Positions 7,201-7,442 are shown, numbered from the stretch's first letter. The stretch is 8,212 nucleotides of DNA from a virus (IMGVR_UViG_3300029762_000052), one strand, 5' to 3'. Notes: generated from the letters alone by a model not told the origin. A program made the numbers and translations.

Positions 7201-7241
7201 GTAAAATCCCCGTCATATGGCAATCAGTAAAGGAAATAAAT

Positions 7242-7442
7242 ATGTCATCGAAAAACCGGACCCGCAGAACCACAACCCGCAATATCCGTTTCCCCAATCA
7301 CATGATTGAACAGATCAACATCGCCCTTCAGCATAAAGGGTCCGGTAACTTTTCAGCGTGGGTTATTGAAGCCTGCAGGAGAAGGCTGGCAACAGATGCA
7401 ACGCATCTGCGTCCGGCCAGCATGACAAATAACGAGAAATGA
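7242..7442 (+). CDS. Small basic protein with predicted ribbon-helix-helix-like DNA-binding fold (66 aa)
   Basis: ATG at 7242 with AAGGA 7 nt upstream. Sequence is MSSKNRTRRTTTRNIRFPNHMIEQINIALQHKGSGNFSAWVIEACRRRL…: a basic N-terminal arm, a short beta-strand (RNIRFP) and two helices. From memory it resembles small YlcI/YnfO-type proteins found beside packaging genes of lambdoid prophages; this was not verified. The longer GTG-initiated version (7182) would overlap the HNH start and is not favoured. Confidence 0.6.
   Translation: MSSKNRTRRTTTRNIRFPNHMIEQINIALQHKGSGNFSAWVIEACRRRLATDATHLRPASMTNNEK

Follow-up and report, generated by a model that had tools for sequence, protein, structure and literature searches.

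The locus and its YlcI/YnfO-family gene

We analysed a viral DNA stretch of 8,212 nucleotides (IMGVR_UViG_3300029762_000052; this whole stretch is called the window below), which is the right-hand part of an Escherichia coli lambdoid prophage read in reverse. A small plus-strand gene encoding 66 amino acids (aa) lies in it between an HNH endonuclease gene and a lipoprotein gene, and it is a YlcI/YnfO-family (DUF3950) gene, ylcI for short, in a prophage of the BP-4795 / JLK-2012 type. The original prediction had described a small gene divergent from the HNH gene, opposite to the late genes, with its own ribosome-binding site and 41 bp between the two start codons, and all of these checkable details are correct (Table 1). 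The plus-strand frame is open from 7182 to 7442; the internal ATG at 7242, which encodes MSSKNRTRR..., is the start in all homologues, and the corresponding 201-nt coding sequence is annotated by RefSeq in phage JLK-2012.

The protein matches Pfam DUF3950 (PF13132) at 70.6 bits (cutoff 25; E 1e-19), NCBIfam NF041551 (YlcI_YnfO_N) at 34.0 bits (cutoff 30) and phrog_949 at E 1.2e-32 over residues 1-59, PHROG 949 being a group without assigned function. DUF3950 / YlcI-YnfO is thus the outcome of the profile search that had been proposed with the original prediction. Proteins 94-98% identical to it carry the name "YlcI/YnfO family protein", and a ylcI-type gene is annotated at this locus by RefSeq in hundreds of E. 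coli genomes. The family is already catalogued in RefSeq, Pfam, NCBIfam and PHROGs, and the presence of the gene here is no discovery.

The family core combines a basic N-terminus with the motifs [KR]-x-I-R-F-P and N-F-S-A-W-V-x-[ED]-A-C in a protein of about 50-80 aa, and in the window it reads TRNIRFPN...GNFSAWVIEAC. Residues I15, R16, F17, I25, F37, S38, V41 and C45 are invariant across 15 family members, and the core motif recurs in about 45 Enterobacterales loci. Compared with the lambda/DLP12, Qin and BP-4795 copies, the first 50 codons hold 16-23 synonymous and 6-10 non-synonymous differences, and the ratio of non-synonymous to synonymous substitution rates (dN/dS) is 0.03-0.11 at dS 0.9-1.7. 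Judged by these ratios, the first 50 codons are under strong purifying selection, with synonymous sites near saturation. Lack of conservation had been named as a result that would speak against the gene; the open reading frame (ORF) is conserved and strongly constrained. A chance ORF or a mis-annotation could be suspected from its short length and the lack of a recognisable promoter, but the scores of the hidden Markov models exceed the curated cutoffs, the conservation extends across Enterobacterales and the substitutions are mostly synonymous. The Pfam and NCBIfam scores together with dN/dS refute this suspicion, and we give it practically no weight.

The family is narrow: among 1.84 billion representatives it makes up 748 clusters at 90% identity and only 99 at 50%. 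Several of them are frameshifted fragments, and one, the repetitive protein P0131 (2087 aa), was rejected as a false positive. Contaminating lambda DNA aside, all genome matches come from Enterobacterales, plus one from Gilliamella. About 30 GTDB assemblies (L087-L121, L140, L146), from Nanosynbacter, Kitasatospora, Cohnella, Flavobacterium and others, hold lambda DNA; in these non-enteric assemblies the lambda contigs are about 3.5 kb or about 48.5 kb long with genes 100% identical, and they are almost certainly sequencing-control contamination. A tblastn match in Pasteurella Pmp7 is antisense to an annotated repressor gene (E 4e-4) and was treated as unreliable.

Positions 6500-8212 share 98% identity with many E. 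coli chromosomes and 94-96% with Stx1a-converting phages and JLK-2012; the four genes of this part bear the RefSeq labels terminase small subunit, HNH endonuclease, YlcI/YnfO family protein and TonB family protein. The GC content is 0.53-0.60 in the packaging genes and drops to 0.40-0.48 from about 7100 onward. The HNH gene opens the packaging block, which continues with the cohesive-end (cos) region and the genes of the small and large terminase subunits (TerS and TerL). Related loci were surveyed in the 80 closest IMG/VR loci; 78 of these hold both the HNH gene and ylcI, and the gap between the two is exactly 41 bp in all 78. The CATGTAAAATCC part of this gap is kept in BP-4795 and JLK-2012, and 7220-7241 differs between those two. 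The convergent TonB_C gene is present in about 46 of the 80 loci and absent from the rest. The idea that this cassette arrived jointly with the 66-aa tail variant was dropped, as about 34 of the 80 loci have the same YlcI without the cassette. The hairpin near the end of ylcI has a perfect 7-bp core (CAGATGC/GCATCTG) within the variable 3' end of the gene, and the RNA fold of 7370-7560 has z = -2.5.

Table 1. Positions of ylcI, its parts and its neighbours in the window
Feature	Position	Strand	Remarks
YlcI/YnfO-family (DUF3950) gene	7242..7442	+	66 aa; ATG start, stop TGA at 7440-7442; from ORF list and translation
Conserved core, residues 11-50	7272..7391	+	TTRNIRFPNHMIEQINIALQHKGSGNFSAWVIEACRRRLA
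Variable C-terminal tail, residues 51-66	7392..7439	+	predicted disordered
Hairpin in 3' part of ylcI coding sequence	7384..7418	+	inverted repeat GGCTGGCAACAGATGC-AAC-GCATCTGCGTCCGGCC; no T-run after it
Ribosome-binding site AAGGA	7230..7234	+	7 nt 5' of ATG; from sequence reading
Divergent gap between HNH and ylcI start codons, 41 bp	7201..7241	.	contains -10-like TAAAAT and 5' leader
Weak sigma-70-like site CTGACA-17-CAGAAT, candidate promoter	7112..7140	+	9/12 matches; inside HNH coding sequence; also in BP-4795
HNH endonuclease gene, divergent neighbour	6835..7200	-	ATG as CAT at 7198-7200; Pfam HNH E 7.5e-7, phrog_589; HNH in RefSeq relatives
Non-coding spacer to convergent TonB_C lipoprotein gene, 131 bp	7443..7573	.	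no consensus terminator
Lipoprotein gene with TonB C-terminal domain	7574..7915	-	convergent to ylcI; PHROG label "Rz-like spanin"
Non-coding stretch, 289 bp			between TerS and HNH genes
TerS, terminase small subunit	5989-6546	-	Terminase_2-type
TerL, terminase large subunit	4331-5992	-	
Protease-capsid fusion gene	2330-4267	-	
Portal gene	754-2118	-	

Some further observations concern other parts of the window. The palindrome AGAATAAGTCTTATTCT (7921-7937) overlaps a promoter-like site, ATGACC-16-TAGAAT (7960..7933), of the TonB_C lipoprotein gene, and a terminator-like hairpin lies just upstream of this site at 8036-8014 on the minus strand. Downstream of the portal gene, positions 1-592 form a 162-bp tandem repeat of 3.7 copies (92% matching); on the plus strand it makes a 185-aa ORF with 54-aa repeats, and the real gene is probably on the minus strand, running off the window. 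No PADLOC match was found, and membership of a defence system was rejected; a search for RNA elements gave no Rfam match at E up to 1 and no tRNA. A position of cosN derived from the ends of the phage Lys8385Vzw record was rejected, since the record is marked as circular and its start is arbitrary.

Recurrent position, orientation and transcription

The gene is real, strongly constrained and a family member, and its position and orientation recur. As is typical of the family, the window copy lies in a lambdoid prophage, adjoins the packaging module and runs against the late genes, and this counter-orientation beside packaging genes is a family trait. A YlcI-type gene is divergent from the TerS gene in 7 of 7 Escherichia/Shigella-type loci of GTDB species representatives. 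The genes ylcI of prophage DLP12 and ynfO of prophage Qin in E. coli K-12 are divergent from the Nu1-type TerS genes nohD and nohA, at a distance of about 388 bp. The lambda ortholog, of 64 aa, lies on the complement strand of NC_001416 at 48109-48303 (L165 3110-3304, minus strand), and 199 bp separate it from the right cohesive end; the NC_001416 record has no annotation for it, and several other lambda-like records give it as hypothetical or as YlcI/YnfO. Upstream of this ortholog and just left of cosQ, GATAATGATTATCATC (lambda L165 at about 3450-3470) looks by eye like a Fur-box palindrome, and it is absent from the window. The genes between ylcI and Rz vary, and bor, ybcV/ybcW, TonB-like, KilA-N, Ant and Rha genes are found there.

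The original prediction had called the gene an orphan. No co-directional ORF lies 3' of ylcI in the ORF list of the window, and there is no partner ORF in the 80 closest loci either, in agreement with the original view that the gene does not look like half of a toxin-antitoxin pair. However, all Nu1-type loci have a downstream DUF1398 gene (ydfO or ybcV) on the same strand, and the HNH-type context has none. In Qin this gene is ydfO (136 aa), 57 bp 3' of ynfO and on the same strand. The word orphan therefore holds in the HNH-type context and fails for the family, because Nu1-type loci have the downstream DUF1398 gene and Qin-type ynfO directly precedes ydfO on its strand.

A promoter had been expected within the 5' coding region of the HNH gene. 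TAAAAT at 7202-7207 is conserved in BP-4795 and JLK-2012 and has no usable -35 element, and CTGACA-17-CAGAAT is the sole consensus-type plus-strand match upstream of ylcI. Promoter-like sites upstream number 4 against 2.3 +/- 1.4 expected, so their count does not exceed chance; the two sites exist, and a promoter at either of them stays conjectural. In BP-4795 the equivalent spacer 3' of the gene carries a 9-bp-stem hairpin followed by T7 on the ylcI strand, which is an intrinsic terminator, and no consensus terminator was found 3' of ylcI in the window.

For K-12 ylcI, a convergent transcriptional overlap (excludon) with ybcW was reported in at least 50% of RNA-seq samples (PMC12288877), and this overlap makes the proposed expression outside the late programme plausible. 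The terminator of BP-4795, the K-12 overlap and the drop in GC content speak for an independent transcription unit. The listing of ybcW-ylcI as a convergent excludon also raises another explanation, in which transcription itself is what matters. Convergent anti-late transcription across 7242-7573 would then restrain, in the manner of an excludon, read-through that enters or leaves the packaging block, and the invariant anti-late orientation and the stable hairpin at 7384-7418 would fit. However, dN/dS of 0.03-0.11 indicates that the protein sequence itself is selected, and a strong promoter is absent, so we regard this explanation as very unlikely.

Predicted fold and candidate functions

The core consensus is TTRNIRFPN-x-MIEQINIAL-(loop)-NFSAWVIEACRRRL, for which a ribbon strand at about residues 12-18, helix A at 19-32 and helix B at 37-54 (to window position 7403) are predicted. 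An AlphaFold monomer built on a 15-sequence alignment (predicted local distance difference test, pLDDT, 66) gave the helices at 19-32 and 37-54 with pLDDT 70-80, and its N-terminal segment was not a strand, as expected if the strand forms only in the dimer. Residues 57-66 have pLDDT below 50. From copy to copy (window, lambda/DLP12, Qin, BP-4795) the tails are wholly different, and DNA similarity ends at about codons 50-53.

The Foldseek lists for PDB and viral structures consist mostly of ParD, NikR, Arc, MazE9-N, CopG and entries named "RHH DNA binding" (RHH, ribbon-helix-helix), none at E below 0.5. Using hhalign, T-T-R-N-I-R-F-P was aligned to P-Q-F-N-L-R-W-P of Arc (E 0.02, probability 2.4%). 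N14 and R16 of YlcI thereby align with N11 and R13 of Arc, which contact bases in the Arc-operator complex; R16 is invariant and N14 varies between lineages. As AlphaFold, Foldseek and hhalign agree and N14/R16 align with the base-contacting residues of Arc, we take YlcI for a dimeric DNA-binding protein of the RHH type. Such a fold fits the structural results best, and the fold-level evidence for it is weak but points in one direction.

The top structural matches belong to RHH antitoxins (TacA1, TacA2, CopA(SO) and ParD), and the C-terminal region of the HicB-like phrog_497 gave a weak match (E 0.019). Together with ydfO 57 bp 3' of ynfO in the Qin type and a DUF1398 gene downstream in all Nu1-type loci, these matches could indicate that YlcI is an RHH antitoxin, orphaned or a remnant, from a pair of the type II toxin-antitoxin kind, and that it is retained for anti-addiction or cross-neutralisation. 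However, a co-directional partner exists neither in the window nor in any of the 80 closest loci, and the C-terminal tail, which is the toxin-binding part in antitoxins, is short, unconserved and predicted to be disordered. The core is strongly constrained without a partner, PADLOC gave no match, and DUF1398 is not known to be a toxin family. An antitoxin of this kind is improbable in our view.

Our favoured interpretation, which we consider fairly probable, is that YlcI is a small transcription factor of the RHH type, which would be expressed from a counter-oriented unit of its own, probably in lysogens, and which is probably autoregulatory. At the N-terminus, a basic arm (K4, R6, R8, R9, R13) would lead into the short beta-strand at about residues 12-18; in the dimer this strand would pair with its twin and occupy the major groove of the DNA, N14 and R16 facing the bases. 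The dimer core would consist of helices 19-32 and 37-54, and the last 15 or so residues would be a dispensable, disordered and copy-specific tail. The gene would form a separate transcription unit against the Q-dependent late operon, at the border of the post-lysis variable accessory region and the packaging block, and because of this separation from the late operon its expression could be independent of the late programme, probably in the lysogen. The protein would most likely be a sequence-specific transcriptional regulator, with its own promoter probably among its targets. The RHH fold, dimerisation, DNA binding and the timing of expression are inferred, and autoregulation is suggested by analogy with relatives in satellites.

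Distant members of the family (35-60% identity) occur in three settings, namely a Salmonella locus, places next to chromosomal genes, and P4/PICI-like satellites (PICI, phage-inducible chromosomal island). In Salmonella enterica subsp. diarizonae (L124 5995-6171), a YlcI-like ORF lies between IpgD/SopB-family and Peptidase_C69 genes, in an arrangement that matches Salmonella pathogenicity island 5. Some distant members in Pantoea adjoin ABC-transporter-like genes, as read from the sequence only. In at least 7 loci the setting is a P4/PICI-like satellite in which no other gene shares the strand of the YlcI-like gene; integrase-AlpA flanks it on one side, and on the other side stands an operon with a Zn-ribbon/Toprim primase at its end. 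Within 110 bp upstream, the satellite genes have 3-5 lineage-specific GTG-N6/7-CAC repeats at about -102, -79 and -30, about 23 nt apart, and the last copy overlaps a TATAGT-like -10 element; such repeat-bearing regions, about -110 to -20 from the ATG, were seen in L004, L136, L137, L141, L144, L147, L149, L150, L151 and L163. The 8-mer CACGTCAA is found in 10 of 31 non-redundant upstream regions, where the 95th percentile of the shuffled maximum is 5. These repeats look like a putative autoregulated operator array, and they give the best indirect support for a regulator function.

Several results weigh against the regulator interpretation. No RHH Pfam model matched at E up to 10 in any of the 15 family members, though the HMMER filters remove most matches above E of about 0.1, and sequence and profile searches of PDB matched no solved structure. 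Membership of an RHH sequence family is therefore not established, and the original description of the protein as RHH-like is supported, weakly, at the level of the fold (AlphaFold, Foldseek and hhalign to Arc) and not at that of sequence families. No promoter above chance was found upstream of ylcI in the window or in lambda, and the support for transcription is indirect, as it comes from the K-12 paralog ylcI rather than from this prophage. No palindromic half-site of at least 5 nt is common to the window-type and lambda-type flanks, and thus a shared operator cannot be proposed. The satellite repeats might also serve a different binding protein or function as replication iterons. Finally, literature searches on DUF3950, ylcI and ynfO gave only gene lists, a point mutation and an entry in a PdhR SELEX table, and no functional study.

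As possible targets of the protein, the original prediction had pointed to palindromic sites at 6621..6744. Five copies of GTTAACAT, in both orientations, lie there at 6621-6742 (0.15 expected), between the HNH stop (6835) and the TerS start (6546). The repeats are absent from the scanned DLP12 ylcI-nohD spacer, and by reading no GTTAAC is found in the lambda right-end sequence, yet the predicted DNA-reading strand, TTRNIRFPN, is identical in YlcI of the window, DLP12 and lambda contexts. An action of YlcI on these repeats was rejected on this ground. Since the repeats track the TerS/cos type and not YlcI, they are better read as TerS (cosB-like) sites, and they are probably TerS binding sites at a cosB-like position; lambda has cosB where the repeats sit here. 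A repeat of the satellite kind was not found close to ylcI in the window, where no GTG-N5-8-CAC lies within 100 bp upstream of the gene and the nearest (7101-7112) is about 130 bp up, inside the HNH coding sequence.

The position of ylcI gives rise to another proposal, a packaging- or cos-linked factor that binds DNA or terminase near cos and modulates packaging of its own phage, competitors or satellites. The gene is always nearest to the packaging module in two unrelated types (Nu1-type TerS; HNH with Terminase_2) while the Rz-side genes vary, and natural fusions of DUF3950 to a TerS N-terminal domain exist in satellites. These fusions form five protein clusters, P0190 and P0215-P0218, that are 48-86% identical, with loci at L004 4714-5103 and L170 9001-9429, and in alignment their TerS part has 58% identity to the window TerS (by tblastn, 64% over 39 aa). 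The L170 satellite, with int, alpA-like, fusion and primase genes, is inside a prophage late region, between TerS and tape-measure genes, which resembles the helper-embedded satellites of bioRxiv 10.1101/2022.07.18.500453. A functional analogue is known from Listeria, where packaging is blocked by TerI, a 65-aa protein whose ORF lies on the negative strand of the early lytic module and has transcripts in the lysogen.

However, ylcI is antisense to the late transcripts for packaging proteins, and two non-homologous TerS/cos types go with YlcI cores of about 88% identity, so that the protein does not co-vary with packaging specificity, whereas the GTTAACAT repeats follow the TerS type. The minimal lambda cos, from cosQ to cosB, suffices for packaging without this ORF, which also counts against a role in packaging. 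No TerS or helix-turn-helix (HTH) match was found for YlcI with Pfam in the 15 members. The PICI redirector Rpp, described as resembling the N-terminus of lambda TerS (PMC6739421), is of the winged-HTH and not of the RHH type, and identity of YlcI with Rpp was rejected for this reason. We regard a packaging factor, which the original prediction had also named as a possibility, as unlikely.

A related and broader idea, to which we attach little probability, is that YlcI is a cos-linked protein tied to genome ends or to phage-satellite conflict, and not a generic moron. The right end of lambda is packaged last and injected first, so ylcI, the innermost-facing gene there, could be transcribed inward before or independently of the late programme. 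Since its domain also occurs in the lone opposite-strand gene of the satellites and in the TerS fusions, YlcI might in that case cross-talk, as co-repressor or derepressor, with satellites that parasitise the same packaging machinery, or might bind near cos against the packaging of competitors as Listeria TerI does.

Comparison with known systems

The gene is among the most constrained small lambdoid phage genes, it is functionally uncharacterised, and in lambda itself it is missing from the RefSeq annotation. Its relatives appear to be lone counter-oriented regulators of P4/PICI-like satellites. The candidate roles, which are gene control in the lysogen, packaging interference and phage-satellite cross-talk, are cheaply testable in lambda and K-12.

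The closest known counterparts are K-12 YlcI (DLP12, b4589) and YnfO (Qin, b4533), which share family, size, orientation and the place before the packaging module with the window gene. Between the window and lambda/DLP12, the YlcI core is about 88% identical over residues 1-50 and the C-terminal tails are unrelated. In K-12 a cos region of about 388 bp separates the gene from its divergent neighbour, a Nu1-type TerS, whereas in the window this neighbour is an HNH gene 41 bp away and the TerS is of the Terminase_2 type, and Qin and DLP12 have a DUF1398 gene downstream where the window has none. The 64-aa ORF of lambda encodes a protein identical to DLP12 YlcI and faces inward from the cos end; no HNH gene stands between this ORF and cos, and ybcW-like, DUF1398 and bor genes follow.

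Arc and Mnt of P22, the RHH repressors of immI, are likewise small phage proteins, encoded like ylcI in the late region of a lambdoid phage, and the N-x-R motif of YlcI aligns with Arc N11/R13. Unlike them, YlcI has no Arc/RHH Pfam match and no divergently controlled adjacent antirepressor gene. The likeness to TacA, ParD and CopG and to the N-terminal domains of PutA and NikR is at the level of the fold and below usual significance, and unlike RHH antitoxins YlcI lacks a toxin partner and a conserved C-terminal partner-binding segment.

Lambda bor and other morons share with ylcI the region from Rz to cos, the strand opposite to the late operon and a lower GC content, and bor is expressed in lysogens (PMC7067206). 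However, bor encodes an outer-membrane lipoprotein and has a documented promoter, whereas YlcI is a predicted cytoplasmic protein of DNA-binding type, and unlike typical morons it is nearly universal at its position. The satellite YlcI-like genes encode the same domain with the core motif IRFP...NFSAWV..AC and likewise stand alone facing against their neighbours; unlike the window ylcI, they lie between int-alpA and the primase operon and have triple repeats around the -10 element, and some are fused to the TerS N-terminal domain.

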